This document shows, in pieces, positions 2,656 through 55,925 of a DNA stretch of 64,000 nucleotides. A program made the translations under genes and the position numbers. The stretch is from NCBI GenBank assembly GCA_023267275.1, contig JAHFNO010000005.1, forward strand, positions 9,462-73,461. The letters are read 5' to 3'. The notes under the pieces were generated by a model. That model was given only the letters and a program-made list of their open reading frames with translations. It was not told the origin of the DNA and ran no database searches. The stretch comes from Candidatus Nomurabacteria bacterium. GTDB lineage: Bacteria > Patescibacteriota > Minisyncoccia > Phycocordibacterales > UBA9973. Each line of letters begins with the position of its first letter. The stretch's first letter is position 1.

Positions 2656-3495
2656 ATGATTAATATTCCCATTCTCTACGAAGACGACAATTGTCTTTTT
2701 ATAAATAAGCCGGCGGGGCTTTCTGTGCATGCAGATGGAAAGTCGGATCAATATACTCTTGCCGACTGGATTTTGGAAAAATACCCAACGCTTCTTGCGG
2801 TGGGTGAGCCAATTAAAATGCAGGTACGTGGAGAAGAAATCAGTATTCCAAAACCAGGCATTGTGCATCGTCTCGACAAAGATACTTCCGGCGTCATGCT
2901 TCTTGCAAAAACACATGAGGCGTACGAATTTTTTAAAAAACAATTTCAAGCTCACGAGATTGCAAAAATATACCACTGTTTCGTGTATGGATGGATCAAG
3001 GAAGACCAACAAACAATAGATAGTCCAATCGGACGCGATGCGGGAAATATTCGTCGTTGGGTCGTGGGCAATCTCGCGCGCGGAATGATGCGTGATGCAG
3101 TGACGCACATTCAGGTGCTCAAACGGTTTGGCGCTCCGATGCAGGGGAGCAAGCGAGTTGTTGTAGCCGAGGCTCCTATCGGCGGGAGTACTGAAAAAGG
3201 TACATATTCTTTTGTAGAAGCTCGTCCTCGAACTGGTCGTACACACCAGATTCGTGTGCATTTGCGTTCGATAAACCACCCAATCGTAAGTGACTCACTC
3301 TATGCTCAAAAGCGCGAACCAGCCCTCGGATTTACTCGCCAAGCGCTCCATGCGCGAGAGCTTCGCCTCGCATTACCAAACGGCGAAACAAAGACAGTCG
3401 TTGCTCCATACCCTGAAGATTTCAAAAGAGCACTAGAACAAGAGAACATTGGATCACTAGAACATAAAAACAATAAACAAGAAAACAAAGGATAA
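2656..3495 (+). CDS. RluA-family pseudouridine synthase
   Basis: HRLDKDTSGVMLLAKT catalytic motif; family-typical PAGL.VH and ARP.TGRTHQIRVH segments. Internal Met at MINIPILYEDD taken as start; the listed ORF begins at 2596. Confidence 0.85.
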   Translation: MINIPILYEDDNCLFINKPAGLSVHADGKSDQYTLADWILEKYPTLLAVGEPIKMQVRGEEISIPKPGIVHRLDKDTSGVMLLAKTHEAYEFFKKQFQAHEIAKIYHCFVYGWIKEDQQTIDSPIGRDAGNIRRWVVGNLARGMMRDAVTHIQVLKRFGAPMQGSKRVVVAEAPIGGSTEKGTYSFVEARPRTGRTHQIRVHLRSINHPIVSDSLYAQKREPALGFTRQALHARELRLALPNGETKTVVAPYPEDFKRALEQENIGSLEHKNNKQENKG

Positions 3496-3649
3496 AAGCA
3501 TGATCGTATGTCTTTGTTTTTGGACTTATTGTTATGGTGATTTTTGTTCTTGTGTTTTTATGTCTTCTATGGTAATGTACCTCAGTATTTATGGAATTGC
3601 GGATTCGAGCTTTCTATAACCTATAACCTAACCCCTAGAACCTATTTAT

Positions 3650-14812: not shown

Positions 14813-17398
14813 ATGAATCAAATGAAAAAAGTGTTTTGCTTGCTCGGAGTCGTTCTTTCACTTTTTATTATCGTCGCAATTCCAAACAGAGCTTCGGCTG
14901 CGACGTGGACAGCGAATACCACATTCGGTACTCATTTTTGGTCTCTTGGCGGAATTACTGCATCTGCCGATGGAATGAAGCTGGCTCTTATCGATAAGGC
15001 TGGTACACATACAAACGGTTATATTTATACATCTACCGACGGGGGAATAACATGGACACTGCGTACCTCCGCAGGTTTTCATTCTTGGGAATCCATTGCC
15101 ATGTCTGCTGATGGAATGAAAATTATTGCTGCCGATCTTGGTGGATATCTTTATACATCAACTGATAGTGGGGCAACTTGGATAGCACGCACTACACCTG
15201 GAATGCATAATTGGACGGCGGTTGCGTCATCCGCCGATGGAATGAAACTTGTTGCGGGTGTTTCAGGAGGCATGAGTTATCCAACTGAATCTAATGCCAT
15301 ATACACATCAACTGACGGCGGGGCAACCTGGGTTTTACGAATCACTTCAACGACAGCTCCAAGCAATTATCACTGGAGATCGATTGCGTCTTCTGCTGAC
15401 GGAGTAAAACTGATAGCTGCAGTGCAGGATGGTGGGTATTTGTATACATCAACTGACAGCGGTGCAACATGGACAGCGCGTACATCTGCGGGGATAGATA
15501 ATTGGATAACAGTATCTTCTTCTGCCAATGGAACCAGACTTATTGCAGGATCTGACGAGAATGGTACGAATCGTTTACTTACATCAGCTGACGGTGGAGT
15601 AACATGGACACCTCATGCTTCAGTTACTTCTCATGCGGTTACAGCCTCATCCGCCGATGGAATGAAGCTTTTCTCTGCCGGGAGTGCTTATCTTGCTCAA
15701 AATATTTTTACATCAGTAGACGGTGGTTCTACTTGGACCGCTGAAACAGCCGGAGGCAGTCGTAACTGGTGGGGTCTTGCAATATCAAGCGATGCAACAA
15801 GAATTGTTGGAACTGATATTGGTGGGTACTTATATACTGGAGTGACGACAGTAGCAACTTTAGTACCCGTTGTTGCTACAATCTCGGTATCAGATATTAA
15901 CGCAACCAGCGCGGTATTTCATGGAAATATTGTCTCAACAGGATCATCGACAGCATTTACAGTTACGGATATTGGATTCGATTTTGTAAATGAAATAACA
16001 AATGTCACTCAAAATATTGGTGCAGGCAGTCCCTCAGGTCCATTTCCGGTAGGTTCTTATTCTTTCATGGCAAACCCAATTAGTTGTGGTACCCCGTATC
16101 ATTTTCGTGCAACTGCTACAAATTCTATCGGTACTGGATATGGTTCATACATTAGCTTTACCACACTGCCATGTCCTACAGGTACGATCGTTCCTCCTAC
16201 AGTTACCACGGTTTCCGCAACTGCAGTAACCGCAAATAGTGTAATGCTCAACGGTTTAATCACTTCGCTCGGAGGAACAGCTACATCAGCAACAGTTTCA
16301 AGTGTCGGATTTGATTATGGATTCGGTGGTCTTGTTGGAACTCATTCCGTTACGACAGGATCGTTTGGACTCGGTGCATTTAGTACGTCCATTACTGGAC
16401 TTGGTTGTGGTGTTCCATACACTTTCCATGCAAATGCAACAAATTCTGCCGGCACCGGACAAGGCGTAGATATGACATTCACGACGTTGCCATGTCCTCC
16501 GACTACTTATGGTTCAACAATAGTTGTTACGGTTACAGCTGATCCTCAAACCACACGTGCAACACTTACTGGTAATCTGATTCGAATTCCAGGACCAAAT
16601 AGTTCAACGGTTGTTGGATTTGTATACGGACCAACCTTGGCATATGGAAACATTGTAGCCGCTGGTCCTGCAACAAAAACAACAGGAGTGTATACAAAAT
16701 ATATTATTGGTCTTATACCCAATACGCTCTATCACTACAAAGCATATGCTTCGAACTCATATGGAACAGTCTATGGTGAAGACATGACATTTACTACGAC
16801 TGATGGCCTGGCACCACTTGCGACTGCATCATACGGACAAACAAATTCTGCAGTAACCGCAGTGCAGATGATACTCATTGCAAAAGGATATTTAAGAACA
16901 ACTGCGACTGGATATTTCGGCGGAGCAACAATGAGCGCAATCAAAGCTTTTCAAAAGGCGAATGGTCTTGCGACTACGGGAGGTCTTGGAAAATTGACAC
17001 TCGCACTACTCACTGACATTCGTGATCGAGAGGGTATTGCCACGACGGCCCCAGCTTCTGCAAGTGTTGTTACACCAGCATCATCAAGTCTTGCGCGAGT
17101 TCCAGCAACTGTTTCTACGATAAGTTCTGGTTTGATAACAAAAACAGGAGCAACACTCAATGGTCACCTCGATACGCTTGGTAGCGCGTCAACTGCAACT
17201 GTTGGATTCAGTTATGGAAACACGACTGCATATGGCACAAACACAACTCTTGTTTCTGAAATGACGAGTCCTGCTGGATTCTCATCCCATGTAAATCTTT
17301 CCTGTGGTACGAGTTATCATTTCCGTTCATTTGCACAAACTACCGCTAGTACCGTATATGGATCTGATATGATATTTACCACTCCTTTGTGTAATTAA
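14813..17398 (+). CDS. Secreted BNR-repeat surface protein with Ig/fibronectin-like repeats and a peptidoglycan-binding domain
   Basis: Signal peptide; about nine Y.STDGG.TWT BNR (Asp-box) repeats. Repeated FTTLPCP modules. PG_binding_1-like QMILIAKGYL...YFGGATMSAIKAFQKANGL. Confidence 0.7.
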   Translation: MNQMKKVFCLLGVVLSLFIIVAIPNRASAATWTANTTFGTHFWSLGGITASADGMKLALIDKAGTHTNGYIYTSTDGGITWTLRTSAGFHSWESIAMSADGMKIIAADLGGYLYTSTDSGATWIARTTPGMHNWTAVASSADGMKLVAGVSGGMSYPTESNAIYTSTDGGATWVLRITSTTAPSNYHWRSIASSADGVKLIAAVQDGGYLYTSTDSGATWTARTSAGIDNWITVSSSANGTRLIAGSDENGTNRLLTSADGGVTWTPHASVTSHAVTASSADGMKLFSAGSAYLAQNIFTSVDGGSTWTAETAGGSRNWWGLAISSDATRIVGTDIGGYLYTGVTTVATLVPVVATISVSDINATSAVFHGNIVSTGSSTAFTVTDIGFDFVNEITNVTQNIGAGSPSGPFPVGSYSFMANPISCGTPYHFRATATNSIGTGYGSYISFTTLPCPTGTIVPPTVTTVSATAVTANSVMLNGLITSLGGTATSATVSSVGFDYGFGGLVGTHSVTTGSFGLGAFSTSITGLGCGVPYTFHANATNSAGTGQGVDMTFTTLPCPPTTYGSTIVVTVTADPQTTRATLTGNLIRIPGPNSSTVVGFVYGPTLAYGNIVAAGPATKTTGVYTKYIIGLIPNTLYHYKAYASNSYGTVYGEDMTFTTTDGLAPLATASYGQTNSAVTAVQMILIAKGYLRTTATGYFGGATMSAIKAFQKANGLATTGGLGKLTLALLTDIRDREGIATTAPASASVVTPASSSLARVPATVSTISSGLITKTGATLNGHLDTLGSASTATVGFSYGNTTAYGTNTTLVSEMTSPAGFSSHVNLSCGTSYHFRSFAQTTASTVYGSDMIFTTPLCN

Positions 17399-25064: not shown

Positions 25065-25240
25065 AAAAAAATAGTTTGTGATTGGGGAAGTGAGGTTTGA
25101 ATCCTCCACAGTGCCGCTACGGTGATACCAAGACTCTCTTGGGAAGTCCGAATGCCAATCATAAATAGTGTGTCCCGAGCAGGAAATGTAGCGCGTGTTA
25201 AGCGCTCGTCTCTACAAAGTCCCTCGGAAGGGATTTTTTT
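25065..25240 (+). ncRNA. Cobalamin riboswitch with intrinsic-terminator expression platform
   Basis: tGGGGAAGTGAGGTTTGAATCCTCC...ACGGTGATAC...GGGAAGTCCGAATGCCAATC parallels the T. tengcongensis AdoCbl aptamer (GUGGGAAAGUGACGUGAAAUUCGUCC...ACGGUUAUACUCCGAAUGCCACC). Ends in the tccct-cgga-aggga hairpin plus T7 at 25220-25240, ~80 bp upstream of the DUF4430 gene. Confidence 0.75.
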
Positions 25241-25321: not shown

Positions 25322-25837
25322 ATGCATAAAAAATACACAATTTTCTCAGTTATTATTTTTGTTGCGATTCTCGCAGGCTTTTTTGCTATGACAAAAAAGC
25401 CTGCGCAAACACCAGCAGTTACTCCATCTACTCCTCCTGTATCTGTTGTACAAAATATCGGAGCGACAAAAAAAGAAACTCCCGCAACGCCTCCTTCAAC
25501 ACAAATCACAGAGAAAGATTCTGTTGCGAAGCCAACTCTTTCAGTAAGTCCTGACACCACTACAATCAAGCTTATTGTTGGAGACGCAACAACATCTCTT
25601 TCGGCTCCAACAAACAGCTCTTTGTATCAGATGCTCAAGATTGCTCAAATGCAAGGACAAATTACATTTTCTGGAAAACAATATTCAGGACTTGGATTTT
25701 TTGTGACTGCAATCGGTGGTTTGCAAAGCGGGGGAGGAAAGAATTTGTTGTATTACATTAATGGCAAAGAGGCGTCGGTCGGCGTGTCTACCTATATTCC
25801 GCAAAACGGCGACGTTGTGGAGTGGAAATTAGAATAA
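25322..25837 (+). CDS. DUF4430 (transcobalamin-like beta-domain) lipoprotein/surface protein, putative cobalamin binder
   Basis: Signal-anchor then YQMLKIAQ...GLGFFVTAIGGL...LLYYINGKEASVGVSTYIPQNGDVVEWKL matches the DUF4430 pattern. Directly downstream of the cobalamin riboswitch. Confidence 0.6.
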   Translation: MHKKYTIFSVIIFVAILAGFFAMTKKPAQTPAVTPSTPPVSVVQNIGATKKETPATPPSTQITEKDSVAKPTLSVSPDTTTIKLIVGDATTSLSAPTNSSLYQMLKIAQMQGQITFSGKQYSGLGFFVTAIGGLQSGGGKNLLYYINGKEASVGVSTYIPQNGDVVEWKLE

Positions 25838-25840
25838 AAA

Positions 25841-25921
25841 TTTGGTCATTCCCGGCCTGACCGGGAATCCAGGCTAAATGAATTCAACCCTGGATCCTGA
25901 AACAAGTTCAGGATGACCCTA
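25841..25921. repeat. Composite REP-like hairpin pair
   Basis: gtcattcccggcctgaccgggaatccaggc then ggatcctgaaacaagttcaggatgaccc. The same composite recurs at 54453-54535 (gtcattcccggctagaccgggaatccaggc ... ggatcctgaatcaagttcaggatgaccc). Confidence 0.65.
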
Positions 25922-25929
25922 AAAATTTT

Positions 25930-28149
25930 ATGAAAAATAAATATACAAAATTTGGAGTTGGTTTTTTGATTGCAATTGTTTTGTTTGGCGGTGCGATTGT
26001 TCGTGCAGATGATGTGACTCCACCAGCCGATACAACGCCTCCGGTCATAACACTTTTAGGTGATGCATCTGTGACACTTACTGTCGGTGGAACATTTACC
26101 GATGCCGGAGCAACAGCCACAGATGATGTTGATGGAGATATAACTTCACACATTGTTGAGACCGGAACAGTCGATGTAAACACACTAGCCACATATACGC
26201 TTACTTACAATGTGAGTGATACAGCGGGAAATCCTGCGACTCCAGTCACTCGCACTGTTGTGGTCAATCCGCTCCCAGCTCCAACTGAGACAGTCATTGT
26301 TCGCAATGGCGCAACTCTGATTTGGCAGGGAACTGTTCCGCTTGAAACTGCTGGAACAGAATCGATCAATGACAGCACTGGTACAGCTCACACCATAAAC
26401 ACTCGCAGTGTTCTTGCTGTGTTGCACGATGCTGAAACAACGAGCACTGCATTTTCTCTTTCCAATCTTACGTACTACGATTCATTCGGTGCATTTTATC
26501 TGAAATGTGTCACCCCAACAGGGGGAAGTGAGTTGTGTGACAATTGGCAATATGCTGTCGGAACATCTACTCCATGGACGAGTATCGACGCCACAGTTCT
26601 TTCTGGTGGAGAAACTATTGGTATTTATTTTGGCAGTCAGCATCAGGTAGAATTTGATGCAACAACGATTACTGCTGGAAATATATTGACTGCAACAGCT
26701 GAGTCGTACAATTATGCCGACAATACATGGAGTCCGCTTACTGGAGTATCAATCGGCATTACTACACCAAATCCGAGCGATTCTTGGAGTCCAATTGTTG
26801 TCTCAACAAATCCTGTTGGTACAGATGGAAAAGCAACAATCACGATTGCTGATGCTGGCACATACAACGCAGGAATTGCTGAGGATTATTATTTTCCTTC
26901 CTATACGATCACGGTAAATCCTGTCGTGACGAGTGGCGGAGGAAGCGGAGGTACACTTCCGCCGCCAACATTCAGTGTTGCGAATGCGATTGCGTATTTG
27001 CAAAGTATGCAAGCAAGCAACGGCTCTTTCGGTGGTTCAGATTTGTATACTGATTGGGCAGGAATTGCATATAGCGCGGGCGGTGTTGCCGGAAGCGCAC
27101 GCGATTCACTCATTGCATATCTCTCAACACACAATACGACAAGCTCGTTGCTCACCGACAATGAACGCCGATCGATGACACTCCTTGCTCTTGGACAAAA
27201 TCCATACGCATTTCATGGAACAAATTATATCGCTCCAATCGTTGCATCGTTTGATGGAACACAATTCGGCGATGCGTCATTGGTAAATGATGATATCTTT
27301 GCACTTATTCCACTTGCAAAAGCTGGATATTCTGCGAGTGATGAAATGATTACAAAGGATATTGCATTTATTATTTCAAAACAAAATGTAGATGGTTCGT
27401 GGGAAGGAAGTGCAGATCTCACTGCGGCTTCTGTGCAAGCACTTCAGCAATTTAGTGGAGTGACCGGAGTTGCGACGGCACTTACAAAGGAAAGTACGTA
27501 TTTACAAGACTCACAAAATGCAACGGGTGGATGGAATAATGTTTCCACTTCGAGTTGGGTAGGGCAGGCAATGAGTGCACTCGGTGCATCGTGGACAAAT
27601 AGCGGAAAGAGCATCAATGATTATTTTGCCGCACAACAAGTCTCAGATGGTGCCGTGCTTCCCGCAACTGAGACTGCACAAAATCGCATTTGGGCAACGA
27701 GTTATGCGATTCCGGCAGTGCTCGGTAAGCCATGGAGTGCAATCCTTTCATCAGTATCTCGCCCAGATACGGGAGGTTCGAGCGGAACGGGTGGAGGAGG
27801 AAAATCTACTTCTGATACATCAACACAAAATACACAGAAAAAACAAACAACTGAAACAACAGAACATACCGATTTGCAAAAAGATGTCGTTGTTGGACTA
27901 CCTCAAGAAAATGAGCGAAATCAAAATATTCAAAAAAATAATCTCTTAAAAAAGAACGTAAAAACACTCGACACTCACTCAGTAAAAACAGAGCAAACTG
28001 CAACTCAGTTTCAAACAACAAATACACTAGGCGCGAGTGCGATTGGTAGTGGAGTCCATTTTTCTCTTGGCGGATCATTCAAAAAAGTGGCAACCGTTTT
28101 GGGTTCAGGTATTAAAAATGCATTCAAATTCATGTTTGGTATACTGTAA
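25930..28149 (+). CDS. Large secreted surface protein with DUF5011/Ig-like domain and a terpenoid-cyclase/prenyltransferase-like alpha/alpha-toroid repeat region
   Basis: Signal peptide; VITLLGDASVTLTVGGTFTDAGATATDDVDGDIT (DUF5011-like). Later YLQSMQASNGSFGG...WAGIAYSAGG...LIAYL repeats resemble an alpha6/alpha6 toroid. Immediately downstream of DUF4430 in the riboswitch-controlled unit. Confidence 0.6.
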   Translation: MKNKYTKFGVGFLIAIVLFGGAIVRADDVTPPADTTPPVITLLGDASVTLTVGGTFTDAGATATDDVDGDITSHIVETGTVDVNTLATYTLTYNVSDTAGNPATPVTRTVVVNPLPAPTETVIVRNGATLIWQGTVPLETAGTESINDSTGTAHTINTRSVLAVLHDAETTSTAFSLSNLTYYDSFGAFYLKCVTPTGGSELCDNWQYAVGTSTPWTSIDATVLSGGETIGIYFGSQHQVEFDATTITAGNILTATAESYNYADNTWSPLTGVSIGITTPNPSDSWSPIVVSTNPVGTDGKATITIADAGTYNAGIAEDYYFPSYTITVNPVVTSGGGSGGTLPPPTFSVANAIAYLQSMQASNGSFGGSDLYTDWAGIAYSAGGVAGSARDSLIAYLSTHNTTSSLLTDNERRSMTLLALGQNPYAFHGTNYIAPIVASFDGTQFGDASLVNDDIFALIPLAKAGYSASDEMITKDIAFIISKQNVDGSWEGSADLTAASVQALQQFSGVTGVATALTKESTYLQDSQNATGGWNNVSTSSWVGQAMSALGASWTNSGKSINDYFAAQQVSDGAVLPATETAQNRIWATSYAIPAVLGKPWSAILSSVSRPDTGGSSGTGGGGKSTSDTSTQNTQKKQTTETTEHTDLQKDVVVGLPQENERNQNIQKNNLLKKNVKTLDTHSVKTEQTATQFQTTNTLGASAIGSGVHFSLGGSFKKVATVLGSGIKNAFKFMFGIL

Positions 28150-28151
28150 GC

Positions 28152-28610
28152 ATGGAACAAAAACACAACCCTACACCTCTTGCTGAACTCAAAAAAATAC
28201 AGCGAGCAAGAAATGCCAATGTTCTCCACAAAGAACGCTTGAGCAAACTCGACCGTTTAGCTGTTTGGATCACCGACCATATCGGCACGATGGGCTTTTT
28301 TCTGACTATTTTTACCTGGACAGTGCTTTGGCTTGGTTGGAATATTTTTGCACCGAAGCCAATGCAATTTGATCCATTTCCTGCATTTGTACTCTGGCTC
28401 TTTATCTCAAATATGATTCAGATATTTTTGATGCCACTTCTTATGATTGGTCAGAATATTCAAGGACGTCATAGCGAGGCACGAGCTGATGCCGATTTTG
28501 AAACAGATAAAAAAGCGGAAATTGAAATCGAAACAATCTTGGCTCATTTGGAAAATCAAAACGAAGTCATGATGCAGATTCTTAAGCGATTGGATGAGAA
28601 AGGAAAGTGA
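28152..28610 (+). CDS. DUF1003-family membrane protein
   Basis: Two TM helices flanked by KLDRLAVWITDHIGT and a charged C-terminus, typical of DUF1003. Confidence 0.55.
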   Translation: MEQKHNPTPLAELKKIQRARNANVLHKERLSKLDRLAVWITDHIGTMGFFLTIFTWTVLWLGWNIFAPKPMQFDPFPAFVLWLFISNMIQIFLMPLLMIGQNIQGRHSEARADADFETDKKAEIEIETILAHLENQNEVMMQILKRLDEKGK

Positions 28611-37213: not shown

Positions 37214-37750
37214 TTAAAATGAATTCTTCCACATCATTGATTCTTTTGGAAGCGCTTCTTGCTGGCTGTATTTTGCGTTTACTTTTTTGCTGTATACACG
37301 TTCCACTTCACCTTCTACTTTGTAGTAGATGAGTTGTCCTACTGGCATGCCGGCATAAATGCGAACGGGGATAGTGCATGAGAGTTCGAGTGTCCAGAAT
37401 CCGCAGAATCCAACGTCACCTTTTCCAGCAGTGGCATGAATATCGATACCAAGACGTCCGGTAGAAGATTTTCCTTCAAGAAAGGGAACATGCTTGTGTG
37501 TTTCTGTGTATTCGAGTGTTGAACCGAGGTAGAGCTGTCCTGGCTGAAGTACGTAGCCTTCTTCAGGGATTTCGAAGTGACGGATTTGGTTGTGCTTCTT
37601 TGCATCAATCATTCCATCGGTATATTGAGCGAGGTGTTTTGAGATATGCACGTCGTACGAATTGCCGCCCATATTTTTAGGGTCAAAAGGAGTAATAACG
37701 ATTTCGCTCTTTTCGATGCATTCGAGAATTTTTGTGTCAGATAAAATCAT
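37214..37750 (-). CDS. dcd: dCTP deaminase
   Basis: MILSD.KI...I....I.I.PFD......G.SYDV.I...F; SSTGRLGI, ATAGKGDVGFCGFWTLE; overall Dcd/dUTPase fold signature. Confidence 0.9.
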   Translation of the reverse strand: MILSDTKILECIEKSEIVITPFDPKNMGGNSYDVHISKHLAQYTDGMIDAKKHNQIRHFEIPEEGYVLQPGQLYLGSTLEYTETHKHVPFLEGKSSTGRLGIDIHATAGKGDVGFCGFWTLELSCTIPVRIYAGMPVGQLIYYKVEGEVERVYSKKVNAKYSQQEALPKESMMWKNSF

Positions 37751-37832
37751 ATAATTTGGTTGTGCTGAAAGTTTCGCATATTCAATGCGTTTGTCAATTT
37801 TTTTGATGGTGAAAAAGTAATTATATATTTTC

Positions 37833-37866
37833 CAAGCATTCTTGTCCGTACGGACAAGAATGCTTG
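37833..37866. repeat. 34-bp perfect palindrome, copy 1, flanking the wHTH/Cas2-like gene
   Basis: caagcattcttgtccg-tac-ggacaagaatgcttg. A near-identical copy at 38386-38419. Confidence 0.65.
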
Positions 37867-37885
37867 ATGAAATGTGTATTTCAAG

Positions 37886-38410
37886 CTAAACAGAAGTAAA
37901 AAATTTTACAGAATCCTTTATTCCAAGCTTTTGAATGCGACTGAGGCATTCTTTTGGGAGTGGTCCGGGTCCTTTCCAGAGACTTCGCTGGAGCATTGTA
38001 TAGCCAAAGATTTTTAATTGATTCCGTAACCATCTGCGTGCATGTCGTTTTGTTTCTGGAATATCAAATGAGACAATTATATTTTTTGGACTTTCTTTTG
38101 TAAAAGGTGAAGAAATATATTCAAGAGGTGAGTATGGTTTTTTGTAGATTTTTCCTTTTTCTGTCAGAAACCACCCTTTGTTATTTTGGTTAATTAATTG
38201 TTTCTTTTTTAATCTGCTTAATTCTGCATATACACTTCCAGTTTTATATCTTTTAATTCTTTTTTCTCGAAGTATTCTATGAAAAACTCGAGTACTTCGA
38301 GCGCTACTAAGAAATGCAATTATATAATCACCGAGAGTGTTTCCGTCTTCCATGTATATAGTATATATCTGTACATTCCTATTCTCAAGCAATTTTGTCC
38401 ATACGGACAA
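37886..38410 (-). CDS. wHTH plus Cas2-like (ferredoxin-fold) domain protein; PaaX-like regulator architecture
   Basis: N-terminal winged helix (RVFHRILREKRIKRYKTGSVYAELSRLKKKQLI...NKGWFLTEKGK). C-terminal IIVSFDIPETKRHARRWLRNQLKIFGYTMLQRSLWKGP parallels Cas2 (VSYDV..RRLRKV.K..GQRVQNSVFEC). Confidence 0.5.
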   Translation of the reverse strand: MSVWTKLLENRNVQIYTIYMEDGNTLGDYIIAFLSSARSTRVFHRILREKRIKRYKTGSVYAELSRLKKKQLINQNNKGWFLTEKGKIYKKPYSPLEYISSPFTKESPKNIIVSFDIPETKRHARRWLRNQLKIFGYTMLQRSLWKGPGPLPKECLSRIQKLGIKDSVKFFTSV

Positions 38411-38419
38411 GATTGCTTG
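38386..38419. repeat. 34-bp near-perfect palindrome, copy 2, overlapping the start codon of the wHTH/Cas2-like gene
   Basis: caagcaattttgtcc-atac-ggacaagattgcttg, one arm mismatch. Confidence 0.65.
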
Positions 38420-38445: not shown

Positions 38446-38862
38446 TTATCCACGAAAATGGTTAATCGCTTGTTGTGACATTTTGGCGATGGGCGAGGGG
38501 AGGTTTGCAAAAGTAAACCAACCAATCTCTGCGCATTTTTCCGGTTCTTGAATTGTTGGTGTGCCAGAAATTATTTTTAAATAAAAAATATTGGTCAGCC
38601 AGTGCTGTTTTTCTTGCGGAACAATATAATCGTATGAAGGAAGTTGTTTTACAATACTCGTTTCAATTCTGAGCTCTTCATGGATTTCTCGCACCACAGT
38701 AGTTTCAAGTGTCTCGCCAAAATCAACCTTGCCTCCGGGAAGAGCCCAAGCACCAGGCTCAGTGGAAACATGTGCTCCGCGCTTCATCATCAAAAATTCA
38801 TTCTTCTCGTTGAAGATGAATGCACCAACACCTACACCAATATAATCTATGCCTGGTTTCAT
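38446..38862 (-). CDS. NUDIX hydrolase (MutT-like)
   Basis: Nudix box GGKVDFGETLETTVVREIHEELRI. Confidence 0.8.
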   Translation of the reverse strand: MKPGIDYIGVGVGAFIFNEKNEFLMMKRGAHVSTEPGAWALPGGKVDFGETLETTVVREIHEELRIETSIVKQLPSYDYIVPQEKQHWLTNIFYLKIISGTPTIQEPEKCAEIGWFTFANLPSPIAKMSQQAINHFRG

Positions 38863-39371
38863 TTTGTATATGTAATAAACGAATACGCGTACTGATTTTT
38901 TTCATCAGCTACATGGTTTTCTTTTGATTTCTCTTTCCAGCTCGATTCTATTTCCGGGAAAAAAGTATCAGCGGGAAGTGTTGCGTGTACTTGAGTGATA
39001 TAGAGTTTGCTTGCTCGGGAAATACTTTCTTTGTAAAGTTCGCCACCACCAATAATAAAGACCTCTGTTTCTTCTTGTTTTTCTTCAAAATGTTTTCCCT
39101 GCTCAAGTGCGGCAAGACGAAGTGCTTCATCAAGTGAATGTACAATAGCAACGCCAGGAGTGAAGTAATTTTTGTCGCGCGTTATCACAATATTTTCTCG
39201 GTCGGGGAGTGGTTTGCCGATAGATTCAAATGTTTTACGCCCCATGATAACAGTGTGTCCGCGAGTGATATCACGAAAATGCTTCATGTCGGCTGGAAGT
39301 TGCCAAAGAAGTTGATTGTCTTTGCCGAGTTCATTTTTTTCACCAATAGCTGCGATGAGCGAGATAATCAT
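38859..39371 (-). CDS. folA: Dihydrofolate reductase
   Basis: MIISLIAAIGEKNELGKDNQLLWQLPADMKHFRDITRGHTVIMGRKTFESIG and GGGELY; adjacent to thyA. Confidence 0.85.
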   Translation of the reverse strand: MIISLIAAIGEKNELGKDNQLLWQLPADMKHFRDITRGHTVIMGRKTFESIGKPLPDRENIVITRDKNYFTPGVAIVHSLDEALRLAALEQGKHFEEKQEETEVFIIGGGELYKESISRASKLYITQVHATLPADTFFPEIESSWKEKSKENHVADEKNQYAYSFITYTK

Positions 39372-39440
39372 AGGTGTACTATAGCAAAATTGGTTAAATA
39401 AAAAATACTGCGACAACACAGAGTGTTGTCGCTTCGCTGT

Positions 39441-40406
39441 TTATACTGCGATAGGTGCCTTGATTGCAGGATGTGGATCATAGCCAATCAATTCAAAATC
39501 TTCAATAGTGAAATCCTCCACATTTTTCTTTTCCGGATTCATTTTGAGTGTTGGAAGTGGGCGAATTTCATTGCGTCGCGCGAGCTGTGTTTTTGCTTGC
39601 TCAAGATGATTGAGATATAAATGCACATCACCTCCGGTCCACACAAATTCTCCAACGGCGAGTCCACAAACTTGCGCGATGATGTGTACGAGGAGGGCAT
39701 ATGAGGCAATGTTGAATGGCACACCAAGAAATGTGTCGCAACTGCGCTGATACAACTGGCAGGAAAGTTTTCCATCGGCGACATAGAATTGGAAGAGACA
39801 GTGACATGGAGGAAGCCCTGCCTTTGCCATTTCTGCAATATCGCCCACGTTCCAAGCAGAGACAATCATTCGACGTGAGTCTGGCGTCTTTTTAATTTGC
39901 TCAATAACTTCGGCAAGTTGATCAATATGTCGTCCGCCTTCAGCTGGCCATGAACGCCATTGATATCCATAGATGGGTCCAAGGTTTCCATACTCTTTTG
40001 CAAACGCTTCATCTGTTTTTATTTTTTCAATAAATTCTGCGAGACCTTTTGACCATTCCTCGCTGTCACTTTTTGGTACAGGAATGTTGTTTCGTGTTAA
40101 ATATGCTTTGTATGGCCATTCATCCCAAATGTGTACGTTGTTGTCGGCAAGATATTTTAGATTTGTATCGCCACGAAGAAACCAAAGCAATTCATGGACG
40201 ATCGCTTTGAAGGGAACTTTCTTTGTAGTGAGAAGAGGAAAGCCGTCTTGTAAATTGAAACGCATTTGATAGCCCAGAACACTTTTTGTGCCGGTACCAG
40301 TACGATCGGTTTTTACATTTCCATTTTGTAATAAGTGCTCGAGCAGGTCGAGGTATGATTCGTCAACATGTTTTCCTAACATGTTATCAGTATACTCGTT
40401 TTGCAT
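39441..40406 (-). CDS. thyA: Thymidylate synthase ThyA
   Basis: [42 protein letters not shown]: the full ThyA signature including the active-site Cys. Confidence 0.95.
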
Positions 40407-45464: not shown

Positions 45465-45580
45465 TTGGGTCATCCTGAATTTATTTCAGGATCTACTTTT
45501 TTGTATTAGTTTTTCGTGGATTCCGGATCATGCTCCAAGAGTCATTCTGCTGAATGAAGTTCGGAATGACAATACGGGGA
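45465..45580. repeat. REP-like hairpin cluster
   Basis: gggtcatcctgaa-tttat-ttcaggatc, then ggattccggatc and gtcattctgctgaatgaagttcggaatgac. Confidence 0.55.
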
Positions 45581-54611: not shown

Positions 54612-55193
54612 ATGTTTGATAAACATCAACGTATTCGTATAGGGCAGGAGATTATGCGTGACCATTTTGTGCAGATTGGTGACACCACCGAGATTTTTCT
54701 CGGTGCACTAAAAGGCTTTCGACGCGACCTCGCTCTTTCTTCAAAGGCAACATTCGGAAATATTCGCGGAGAATTTATTGAAACCGCCACGATTATTGCT
54801 GTGCCTCCGCTCTCCGACGGAATGAGTCTTTCCAACTTGAGTGCAATGCTCACACTCTGCACGCAGGCTTTTTTTGGGACAATCGCCATCGATATTCCGG
54901 AGACAATGACAGAAGAGGAAAAGAACTATTTTTTGGAAGAGCTTGATGTCACACATACAAATCTTATGGCTGTATCTGAAACTGCAACACAGTTGTATCA
55001 ATCTATAAAAGAAACTGGTTTTGATTTTGATGTATTCAACACTGAAAATATTGAAAACGAACACACGGAATGCAATATTTTGTTCAATCGTGACGCCCTC
55101 AATCTCGCAATGGAAACCGCGCGAGCGCTTGCCGAACGTGCGGTACGACTCGATATTGATTTAATGGAAAGCCGTGAATCACTAGAACAATAG
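54612..55193 (+). CDS. Hypothetical protein; stop codon lies inside the 8-bp tandem array
   Basis: 193-aa ORF with no recognised domain. Ends ...SLEQ with its TAG at 55191-55193 inside the repeat. Confidence 0.5.
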   Translation: MFDKHQRIRIGQEIMRDHFVQIGDTTEIFLGALKGFRRDLALSSKATFGNIRGEFIETATIIAVPPLSDGMSLSNLSAMLTLCTQAFFGTIAIDIPETMTEEEKNYFLEELDVTHTNLMAVSETATQLYQSIKETGFDFDVFNTENIENEHTECNILFNRDALNLAMETARALAERAVRLDIDLMESRESLEQ

Positions 55194-55322
55194 AACACTA
55201 GAACAATAGAACAATAGAACAATAGAACAATAGAACAATAGAACAATAGAACAATAGAACACTAGAACAATAGAACAATAGAACACTAGAACACTAGAAC
55301 AATAGAACACTAGAACAATAAA
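55181..55322. repeat. Tandem array of about 17 copies of the 8-bp unit (A/C)(A/C)TAGAAC
   Basis: actagaac aatagaac actagaac aatagaac x7 ... read directly from 55181 to ~55322. Lies between the hypothetical gene and the YdeN-like gene. Confidence 0.9.
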
Positions 55323-55334
55323 ACAAAAAAACAT

Positions 55335-55925
55335 ATGAATGACAAAAAAGTATTTATGGTGCACGGATTTCGAGGAGAGCCCAATGGAGGATGGCGTCCT
55401 TGGCTTATGGGTCAGCTCGCAAAAGCGGATGTGTATGCGTGTGCTCTTCCAATGCCAACACCAAGCGATCCAATCAAAGAAGAATGGATTAAAGAAATAC
55501 AGCACGCCATTCCAAACCCCAATGAAGATATTTTTCTCGTTGGACACAGTCTTGGAGTGCCTGCAATTTTAAACTATCTTGAGTCTTTACCAGAAGGGGC
55601 TAAGATTGGCGGAGCAGTGCTTGTTTCTGGACCAATCGAAAAAATTGATACTGAAAATCCTGATTCAAAATTGAGAAAAATCGATCATTTTTTTCACGAT
55701 TTCGATTTTAATAAAATTAAAAATTCTTGTTTACAATTTTCTGTTATTCACGGAGATAATGACCCGAAAGTTGTTTTTGAAAACCACGCGATACCTCTTT
55801 CAGAAAAACTTTCTTGTGAGCTGATTTCTATTCCGAACGGAGGTCATTTAAATGGTAATTCGGGATGGTACGAACTTCCTGAAGCATTTACTGCATTGAT
55901 GCATTTCCTAACACCTAACACCTAA
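55335..55925 (+). CDS. RBBP9/YdeN-family alpha/beta serine hydrolase
   Basis: VFMVHGFRGEP...WRPWL...LVGHSLG (nucleophile elbow), C-terminal His region. Confidence 0.7.
   Translation: MNDKKVFMVHGFRGEPNGGWRPWLMGQLAKADVYACALPMPTPSDPIKEEWIKEIQHAIPNPNEDIFLVGHSLGVPAILNYLESLPEGAKIGGAVLVSGPIEKIDTENPDSKLRKIDHFFHDFDFNKIKNSCLQFSVIHGDNDPKVVFENHAIPLSEKLSCELISIPNGGHLNGNSGWYELPEAFTALMHFLTPNT

Follow-up and report, generated by a model that had tools for sequence, protein, structure and literature searches.

A minimal PaaX-like protein encoded between two long palindromes in Patescibacteria: a predicted autorepressor with twin operators

Why should a small bacterial gene carry a long palindrome at each of its ends? 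The question is raised by a 64-kb stretch of a Candidatus Nomurabacteria genome (64,000 nucleotides of contig JAHFNO010000005.1, positions 9,462 to 73,461; here called the window), in which two similar palindromes, P1 and P2, bracket a minus-strand gene for a protein of 155 amino acids (aa). A first-pass annotation of the letters alone had suggested either an autoregulated repressor with twin operators or a small mobile cassette bounded by recombination sites. On the evidence given below, the protein is most aptly called a "mini-PaaX", being a PaaX-lineage member of minimal, two-domain build, and the best reading of the locus is that of an autorepressor with twin predicted operators. The protein probably has P1 and P2, on either side of its gene, as its cognate operators, as judged with somewhat better than even confidence. 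The elements concerned are the following.

37833-37866, no strand: P1, the 3' site and predicted second operator, a perfect 17+17 palindrome of CAAGCATTCTTGTCCGT joined to ACGGACAAGAATGCTTG
37886-38353, minus strand: mini-PaaX gene, 155 aa, winged helix plus Cas2-like PaaX_M domain
38360-38388, minus strand: promoter-like site of mini-PaaX, with -35 TTGAGA (38388-38383), a 17-nt spacer and -10 TATACT (38365-38360), a 10/12 match to the consensus
38386-38419, no strand: P2, the 5' site and predicted autoregulatory operator, a 15+4+15 quasi-palindrome, CAAGCAATTTTGTCC-ATAC-GGACAAGATTGCTTG

P1 is self-complementary at 100% over 17+17 nt. The 15-nt arms of P2 contain a single T/G mismatch, so that this site is near-perfect rather than perfect; it consists of outer blocks CAAGCA/TGCTTG and inner blocks TTGTCC/GGACAA. 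The two sites are 89% identical over 35 nt and their starts are 553 bp apart. Of the original description as near-identical 34-bp perfect palindromes, the positions, the likeness and the perfection of P1 hold, and the perfection of P2 does not. When the window was searched for more copies with a degenerate 34-mer, P1 and P2 turned out to be the sole sites in 64 kb (0 in 100 shuffles), and neither the relaxed core TTGTCC-N4-GGACAA nor the half-site gave further matches above chance. In an Rfam scan the palindromes match no family, the window yielding only tRNAs and one AdoCbl-II riboswitch. A contig collection that does not include the source genome, scanned with CAAGCANNNTTGTCCNNNNGGACAA, gave five chance matches in unrelated taxa. 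P1 lies 19 nt 3' of the mini-PaaX stop codon (37886-37888) and 82 nt 5' of the ATG of dcd (37750), close to the first estimate of a site just past the stop and about 85 bp upstream of dcd, while P2 ends 32 nt 5' of the mini-PaaX ATG and 26 nt beyond the stop codon of a NUDIX gene.

This last position depends on the start codon. The open reading frame of 174 aa on which the locus was initially described, beginning at a TTG at 38410, is a mechanical maximum. Homologue alignment, the deposited 155-aa gene call (P0001) and the promoter geometry agree on the ATG at 38353, so that the protein has 155 aa and P2 overlaps the -35 element of the promoter (38388-38383, at the end of P2), not the start codon as had been assumed. 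With exactly 6 nt from the -10 element to the ATG, and in the absence of a Shine-Dalgarno sequence, the mRNA is predicted to be leaderless. Promoter-like consensus matches in this region do not, in total, exceed shuffle expectation; such calls therefore carry weight only by their location and, for the mini-PaaX site, by conservation in relatives.

The protein falls into two parts, an N-terminal winged helix (about residues 7-68) and a C-terminal Cas2-like PaaX_M domain (about 92-153). The latter matches PF20803 ("PaaX protein central Cas2-like domain") over residues 93-154 with E=8e-14 and 51.9 bits (cut-off 24), a match that recurs in 17/17 family members tested, and the family has an invariant Cas2-like signature, FDIPE...R...R...Q-S-W. 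Cas2 profiles are matched as well (TIGR01573 with 28.6 bits versus a cut-off of 24.5; PADLOC Cas2 with 3e-7), both partially, over model positions 3-40. The N-terminal half gives weak winged-helix matches (PadR, MarR, BlaI/MecI-like, Sso10a), and sequence searches of the Protein Data Bank (PDB) with mini-PaaX give weak winged-helix matches only. The N-terminal PaaX winged helix, PF07848, does not match the window protein at E<=0.01 and is weakly matched by 3/17 relatives (best 0.0014). The AlphaFold model (mean predicted local distance difference test score, pLDDT, 82) consists of three helices and a beta-hairpin, followed by a beta-alpha-beta-beta-alpha-beta domain. Its best PDB match is E. 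coli W PaaX (8a39), over the full length and weak (E=5e-3, template modelling score, TM, 0.37); many Cas2 structures, Rv0674 and VapD come next, and Cas2 is on top at the level of the domain. The Pfam match, the NCBIfam and PADLOC Cas2 profiles and the AlphaFold/PDB matches are thus in agreement with the winged helix and Cas2/VapD-like fold, in a PaaX-like layout, that had been proposed from the sequence. There is no PaaX_C match, the protein ending at residue 155 directly after PaaX_M.

Some members of the family (P0022, P0118) are labelled "CRISPR-associated endonuclease Cas2" by the Joint Genome Institute (JGI), and the window protein exceeds the trusted cut-off of the NCBIfam cas2 "equivalog"; the Cas2 labelling of mini-PaaX members is likely to be a systematic mis-annotation. 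No CRISPR-like repeat array is present in the window, and no cas1-like family was seen in the 14 largest of 111 neighbour clusters (76 loci), no dedicated Cas1 profile search having been made. PHROG gave one weak regulator match and PADLOC matches to Cas2 profiles only; together with the lack of relatives on viral contigs, this led to the rejection of a phage or defence origin.

E. coli PaaX has TGATTC-N27-GAATCA as its binding site, and it acts by steric hindrance when it represses Px, the promoter of its own gene (PMC9493321). The mini-PaaX protein is reminiscent of E. coli PaaX in having an N-terminal winged helix followed by PaaX_M, a site on its own promoter and, as predicted operator, a widely spaced inverted repeat, CAAGCA-N22-TGCTTG in the window. 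As the outer hexamers share the wide inverted-repeat geometry of the PaaX operator, a site of 34 bp is unsurprising for this lineage. In other aspects the two differ: PaaX is a protein of about 305-316 aa with a C-terminal domain that is absent from the 155 aa found here, and the mini-PaaX sites have an extra palindromic core, a second site after the stop codon, a predicted leaderless mRNA and a host among the Patescibacteria.

The arrangement of site, gene and site is not a peculiarity of the window. Homologous loci were collected by exact-protein look-ups and one metagenome scan (80 loci), giving about 75 distinct genes with 33-62% identity to the window protein; they are referred to here by locus number. 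In the closest relatives (L003, L004/5, L006, L007-9) a long palindrome lies just 5' of the start and another at the stop or just after it. A strict palindrome scan recovered twin palindromes in only about 7/76 loci. This low count is an artefact, because interior arm mismatches and, at many sites, a 1-nt asymmetry of the arms escape such a scan, and it was corrected by reading the flanks and by a scan with a hidden Markov model (HMM). On reading the flanks, a quasi-palindrome of about 34 bp is present twice at nearly all loci, with the family consensus TTATCAC-TTTTn-nACGG/CCGTnAA-nTATGATAA. An HMM trained on 5' sites alone finds the 5' site in 71/75 distinct homologous loci and, independently, the 3' site in 59/75; most of the loci that it misses have lineage-specific palindromes at both ends (L003, L004, L006, L007, L081, L085, L042, L010, L011, L013, L091). 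The module is kept in homologues down to 33-40% identity and in unrelated gene contexts.

The register of the sites is also kept. In the usual case the centre of the 5' site lies 26 nt before the ATG and the 3' site, at most loci, about 18-25 nt after the stop; the window and L003 have both sites about two helical turns further out (47-49 nt from the ATG, 36 and 50 nt from the stop). The outer hexamers of most relatives are TTATCA/TGATAA, about 21 nt apart, corresponding to CAAGCA-N22-TGCTTG in the window, and perfect arms of 17-25 bp occur in several lineages. The distance of the 3' site from the stop codon does not change with the gene that lies downstream, which shows the site to be part of the module rather than of a neighbour's promoter. 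Outside the module such sites are few: 7 extra HMM matches were found in 303 kb of relatives' flanks, and three long loci, read over +/-10 kb (3 x 20 kb), gave no third site, the promoter region of the operon of nrdJ (class II ribonucleotide reductase) included.

A few loci have more than the two sites. Extra operator-like sites occur in L016 (865 nt upstream), L046 (757 nt upstream), L084 (1738 nt downstream) and in L013 and L065 (about 100 nt upstream), and the genes bracketed by extra sites at both ends code for a TauE-like membrane protein, a HAD-like phosphatase and a Pif1-like helicase. One metagenome-assembled genome (MAG) has two paralogous mini-PaaX modules on different contigs (P0038 V1484_00805 and P0053 V1484_01605). 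The paralogue at L104 has palindromes at both ends and a context without recG, between a CAP-domain gene and a small open reading frame, after which comes a MerR-like gene; the 3' site of this module reproduces the 5' site beyond the -10 element and almost up to the start codon.

Two properties of the sites connect them to transcription and to the protein. Firstly, the 5' site has in its right arm, TGATAAT, an extended -10 element. TAnnnT is present at -12..-7 from the ATG in 56/76 loci, and TG at -15/-14 together with TAnnnT at -12..-7 in 54/76, versus 0.16% at random positions; a motif resembling a Shine-Dalgarno sequence occurs in 1/76. These figures point to leaderless transcripts, initiated from extended -10 promoters, throughout the mini-PaaX family. 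In most relatives the 5' site covers the extended -10, and in the window P2 overlaps the -35. Secondly, the core of the site varies by lineage (GACGGCCGTC, GTCCGGCCGGAC, ACACAGCTGT, ACACACCTGTGT, ACGCAGCTGCG, ATCCGATAGGAT, and GTCCGTACGGAC in the clade of the window), and both sites of one locus usually carry the same core variant. The best 30-nt identity between a 5' and a 3' site averages 23.5 within the same locus, 19.1 between different loci and 15.7 for random windows (Wilcoxon p=5e-11). Such sharing is expected if both sites must fit the protein that is encoded between them. A specificity code relating the recognition helix to the core was looked for and rejected, as no clean residue correlation emerged and the core types largely follow the protein tree.

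The genes around the module have a theme of their own. Besides the elements listed above, the following are relevant in the window, where the order, all on the minus strand, is thyA, folA, NUDIX, P2, mini-PaaX, P1, dcd.

39441-40406, minus strand: thyA, upstream and co-directional
38859-39419, minus strand: folA, upstream and co-directional
38446-38862, minus strand: NUDIX gene, upstream and co-directional
37820-37848, minus strand: promoter-like site facing dcd, with -35 CGGACA (37848-37843) inside P1, a 17-nt spacer and -10 TATAAT (37825-37820), a 10/12 match
37214-37750, minus strand: dcd (dCTP deaminase; PF22769, E=6e-38), co-directional and downstream, candidate target of P1

In the family, the commonest arrangement is recG followed by mini-PaaX, with a convergent pduO-type adenosyltransferase gene and nrdJ, whose product carries an ATP-cone, on the other side; beyond nrdJ lie genes for a YfbR-like HD 5'-deoxynucleotidase and for FtsH. 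L003 and L004 have folA, mini-PaaX and then convergent MazG-like and dCMP deaminase genes, the clade of the window being found in thymidylate-synthesis clusters; in the closest relatives the module also comes directly after folA. Other loci have a divergent gene for a dCMP deaminase, an HD protein or a NUDIX protein. There are in this way five arrangements with deoxynucleotide genes (nrdJ-pduO; thyA-folA-dcd; MazG-like plus dCMP deaminase; YfbR-like HD; NUDIX), which suggests that mini-PaaX may have a functional link to deoxynucleotide metabolism. Distant members adjoin unrelated genes, for example Suf/NifU genes and transporters. No paa genes are found among the neighbours in the window or in relatives. 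The downstream neighbour is convergent in 62/70 loci and belongs to several unrelated families, the tandem dcd of the window being an exception, and the genes on either side of the 5' site are divergent in 23 loci.

The twin-operator autorepressor, already considered in the first-pass annotation, is favoured by the conserved module, by the co-variation of the sites, by the location of the 5' site on the promoter and by the PaaX-like geometry of the operator. The opposite outcome, a protein lacking this fold beside palindromes that are genome-wide terminators, is clearly not what was found. By the proposed mechanism, a mini-PaaX dimer, or a dimer of dimers, binds each site of about 34 bp, with the Cas2-like domain serving in dimerization and the winged helix in DNA binding. 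The protein would contact the outer hexamers (CAAGCA/TGCTTG, or TTATCA/TGATAA in most relatives) as well as the inner core (TTGTCC..GGACAA). Binding at P2 would occlude RNA polymerase and thereby repress mini-PaaX transcription, as E. coli PaaX does at Px. The part played by P1 is more conjectural. As a second operator of the module itself it might cooperate with P2 through a DNA loop of about 550 bp, or protein bound at P1 might be a roadblock, shielding the small leaderless gene against transcription that crosses its 3' end; these two roles are mutually compatible. P1 also covers the -35 element of the putative dcd promoter, so that the protein may co-regulate the dCTP deaminase within a thymidylate-synthesis cluster. 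Looping, roadblock and dcd control are all proposed with less confidence than the function of the sites as cognate operators.

Several points weigh against this picture. It is not obvious what target a regulator should have when the sites detected for it all flank its own gene, and there is no site at the nrdJ operon promoter within 10 kb. As the downstream gene is convergent in 62/70 loci, the 3' site is not, family-wide, a promoter operator for the neighbour, and the dcd promoter is called from a consensus match, of which the region has no more than expected from shuffles. The core type largely tracks phylogeny, with no simple code from residue to core. Perfect arms of 17-25 bp exceed the contacts needed by one winged-helix dimer. 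The spacing from site to site, 520-572 bp, shows no helical phasing (p ~0.14), although phasing at a distance of about 550 bp is uninformative on looping. The copy count for the source genome covers the 64-kb window only. Finally, the ligand-binding C-terminal domain of PaaX is absent; this helical domain is reported to bind phenylacetyl-CoA, and any ligand response of mini-PaaX would have to work differently.

Among the other explanations, the one that survives best, unlikely as it is, takes the module to be, or to descend from, a small mobilisable or excisable cassette, with the quasi-palindromes as recombination sites like attC, dif or REP (repetitive extragenic palindrome) elements. These would be acted on by a recombinase in trans or by the winged-helix/Cas2-like protein itself, which has the invariant Cas2-type Asp. 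Such a cassette would account for a compact, self-contained unit of about 560 bp whose 3' site abuts the stop whatever the neighbour, whose two sites are in direct orientation in most relatives, and which occurs in many gene contexts, with at least one MAG having two paralogous modules. It would also fit the sites that bound neighbouring genes in an array-like manner in L016, L046 and L084, and the near-identity, beyond binding needs, of the sites of one locus (L016, L104), which suggests homogenization. Against it speak the absence of a recombinase linked to the module, the lack of dispersed copies of the motif, the failure to find relatives on viral contigs, and a clear promoter role of the 5' site. 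The distances of mini-PaaX and RecG correlate (Mantel r=0.59, p=5e-4) and the synteny recG-module-pduO-nrdJ is held across deep divergence, from which inheritance appears to be mostly vertical, with mini-PaaX evolving faster than RecG (mean identity 64% versus 82%).

Scars of recombination do exist in relatives. In L017, L036, L035 and L018 the module has on both sides a stretch of about 29 nt from the 3' end of recG, stop included; in L007, L024 (29/29 identical), L027, L041, L064 and L073 a second copy of this stretch adjoins the module, the two copies being separated by foreign genes or short inserts. Since unrelated inserts are flanked in the same way, these duplications mark a hot spot at recG and not mobility of the module. 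Between L027 and L022 the mini-PaaX proteins are 91% identical and the RecG C-termini only 79%, a contrast that can be cited in favour of a cassette and that hints at local replacement by recombination. The window itself has neither a target duplication nor the recG-end motif. The earlier proposal of a mobile cassette inserted between dcd and NUDIX-folA-thyA is therefore not supported there, given also the relatives placed after folA and the broadly vertical inheritance with recG in the main clade, and what is left of it is the scarring seen in relatives.

The recG end has some features of its own. The duplicated sequence is AAAAAGCCGGCGAGTTTCATTTTGAGTAA, which encodes ...GEFHFE*, and the copies in L007 are at -2462 and -112 from the mini-PaaX ATG. 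In L027 and L064 an insert of about 70-84 nt, sharing ATACCCCGTA and containing a hairpin, lies between the recG stop and the 5' site and keeps the real recG end apart from a second one, a pseudo-end that is closer to the consensus. The 3' end of recG in Parcubacteria looks like an att-like insertion hot spot.

A more specific form of the idea, and one that we hold to be quite improbable, is that the protein nicks or synapses the flanking palindromes through a Cas2-like dimer, the unit of about 560 bp being a minimal self-mobilizing or excisable element, or else a selfish one that insulates itself. If true, this enzymatic activity could explain both the array-like extra sites and the repeated recG-end duplications in Parcubacteria, and it would represent a Cas1-independent role in DNA transactions for a protein of the Cas2 fold.

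It is equally doubtful that the palindromes act as hairpins in RNA or single-stranded DNA, P2 as a terminator or processing site after thyA-folA-NUDIX and P1 as a terminator or stabilizer of the mini-PaaX mRNA, their likeness being due to a common RNA-binding factor, possibly the Cas2-like domain. Cas2/VapD relatives do include RNases (fold matches 3exc and 3ui3), and P1 and P2 fold very stably on either strand (-22 to -27 kcal/mol, z -6.7 to -9.8). Moreover, the 3' sites abut stop codons, are found where genes converge in 62/70 loci and, as palindromes, tend to be closer to perfection than the 5' sites. There is, however, no U-tract, while canonical terminators with GC-stem and U-tract are present elsewhere in the same window. 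The leaderless promoter lies downstream of or within the 5' site, which is therefore outside the transcript of the gene, and where this site stands between divergent genes (23 loci) there is nothing to terminate. The family sites are mostly imperfect, with conserved blocks of sequence rather than conserved pairing, and the arm mismatches have no excess of G-U wobble (GT 13 versus AC 10 in the 3' sites, T-T being commonest), which argues for selection on duplex DNA rather than on an RNA hairpin. Intrinsic terminators were considered separately and rejected: P1 and P2, with A+T-rich stems of 15-17 bp and no following T-run, are not called by a terminator scan.

That the palindromes are sites of another factor, or generic dispersed repeats that adjoin the gene by chance, is highly improbable, for although the window has other dispersed hairpin repeats (for example GTCATCCTGAA..TTCAGGATGAC), P1 and P2 are outside those families and without further copies, and the pair of sites tracks the gene through about 75 loci and co-varies. 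Short REP-like hairpin repeats unrelated to P1 and P2, GTCATCCTGAAnnnnnTTCAGGATGAC and GTCATTCCCGGCnnGACCGGGAATCCAGGCTAA, are located at 45469, 47378 and 61291 (plus strand), at 25891, 47417 and 54501 (opposite orientation), and at 25845 and 54451.

A predicted autorepressor with an operator at each end of its gene can be compared with several known systems. In phage lambda, OL and OR flank cI, and CI octamers form loops. The immunity region (OL - rexBA-cI - OR) is similar in that a repressor gene lies between its own operators, one of them over the repressor promoter, and looping is plausible in both cases. It differs in the unrelated protein family, in tripartite operators instead of a single site per end, and in a loop of 2.4 kb versus about 0.55 kb. 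Furthermore, mini-PaaX has no phage context, and outward-facing promoters are not established here save for the match that faces dcd. With Cas2 and VapD the C-terminal domain of mini-PaaX shares the beta1-alpha1-beta2 signature, the Asp that ends beta1 (FDIPE) and the Q-x-S-x-W/F strand, whereas, in contrast to Cas2, it is fused to a winged helix and matches the profile partially. The small gene between two imperfect palindromes, and the extra sites around neighbours in a few relatives, resemble RAYT/REP (RAYT, REP-associated tyrosine transposase) and integron attC cassettes. Unlike these, mini-PaaX has no HUH or tyrosine recombinase and no dispersed or arrayed copies, is mostly vertically inherited, and has a 5' site that doubles as a promoter. 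The replication terminator proteins RTP of B. subtilis and Tus of E. coli (at TerB) are encoded beside sites of about 30 bp that also autoregulate their genes, and the mini-PaaX locus is alike in that the gene of a small winged-helix protein adjoins sites of about 30 bp. A replication terminus or origin was rejected, as the GC skew keeps its positive sign over the whole window and does not switch near 38 kb.

The family is large. A profile search of 1.84 billion cluster representatives gave 2,757 clusters at 50% identity with E<=1e-10; the 150 matches listed are mostly 150-200 aa long. Members with a named source come from Candidatus Nomurabacteria, Paceibacterota/Parcubacteria and Woesebacteria, and they are annotated as "hypothetical", "PaaX" or "Cas2". 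In the papers searched no mention of PaaX together with Cas2 was found, and PaaX is absent from the top-ranked papers listed on Patescibacteria or the Candidate Phyla Radiation (CPR). The site-gene-site module thus appears to be previously undescribed in these organisms. What is new, as predicted from sequence, is a PaaX-lineage autorepressor cut down to two domains, a conserved operator-gene-operator module and a leaderless promoter. Gene regulation in the Patescibacteria is almost uncharted, and mini-PaaX represents a very large unstudied family of regulators. Because every gene carries two copies of its site, the cognate sites can be read straight from the genome, which provides biochemistry with ready pairs of protein and operator and with natural variants of specificity. 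The family would also be a wide case of leaderless, extended -10 promoters in the CPR, and a possible tie to deoxynucleotide supply is suggested by the genes of ribonucleotide reductase and thymidylate synthesis to which it is repeatedly linked. The purpose of the conserved 3' site is a testable question, with looping, roadblock insulation at convergent junctions and recombination as the answers to be compared.

Some other features of the window may be mentioned. The AdoCbl-II (B12) riboswitch at 25075-25165 on the plus strand scores 37.0 bits versus a gathering score of 36.5. It is followed by genes for a DUF4430 protein (25322-25837), a 739-aa surface protein with Ig-like and prenyltransferase-like character (25930-28149) and a DUF1003 protein (28152-28610), which are probably an ordinary-looking B12-uptake operon. 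At 14957-15736 about six diverged coding repeats of 126-150 nt, TACATCAACTGACGG..GCAACATGG and similar, suggest a repeat-domain surface protein. Finally, about 20 tandem 8-nt units (CAATAGAA/CACTAGAA) at 55172-55330, with a weaker patch at 3399-3499, end just upstream of an ATG near 55336 and are possibly a slippage-prone stretch in a promoter or leader.

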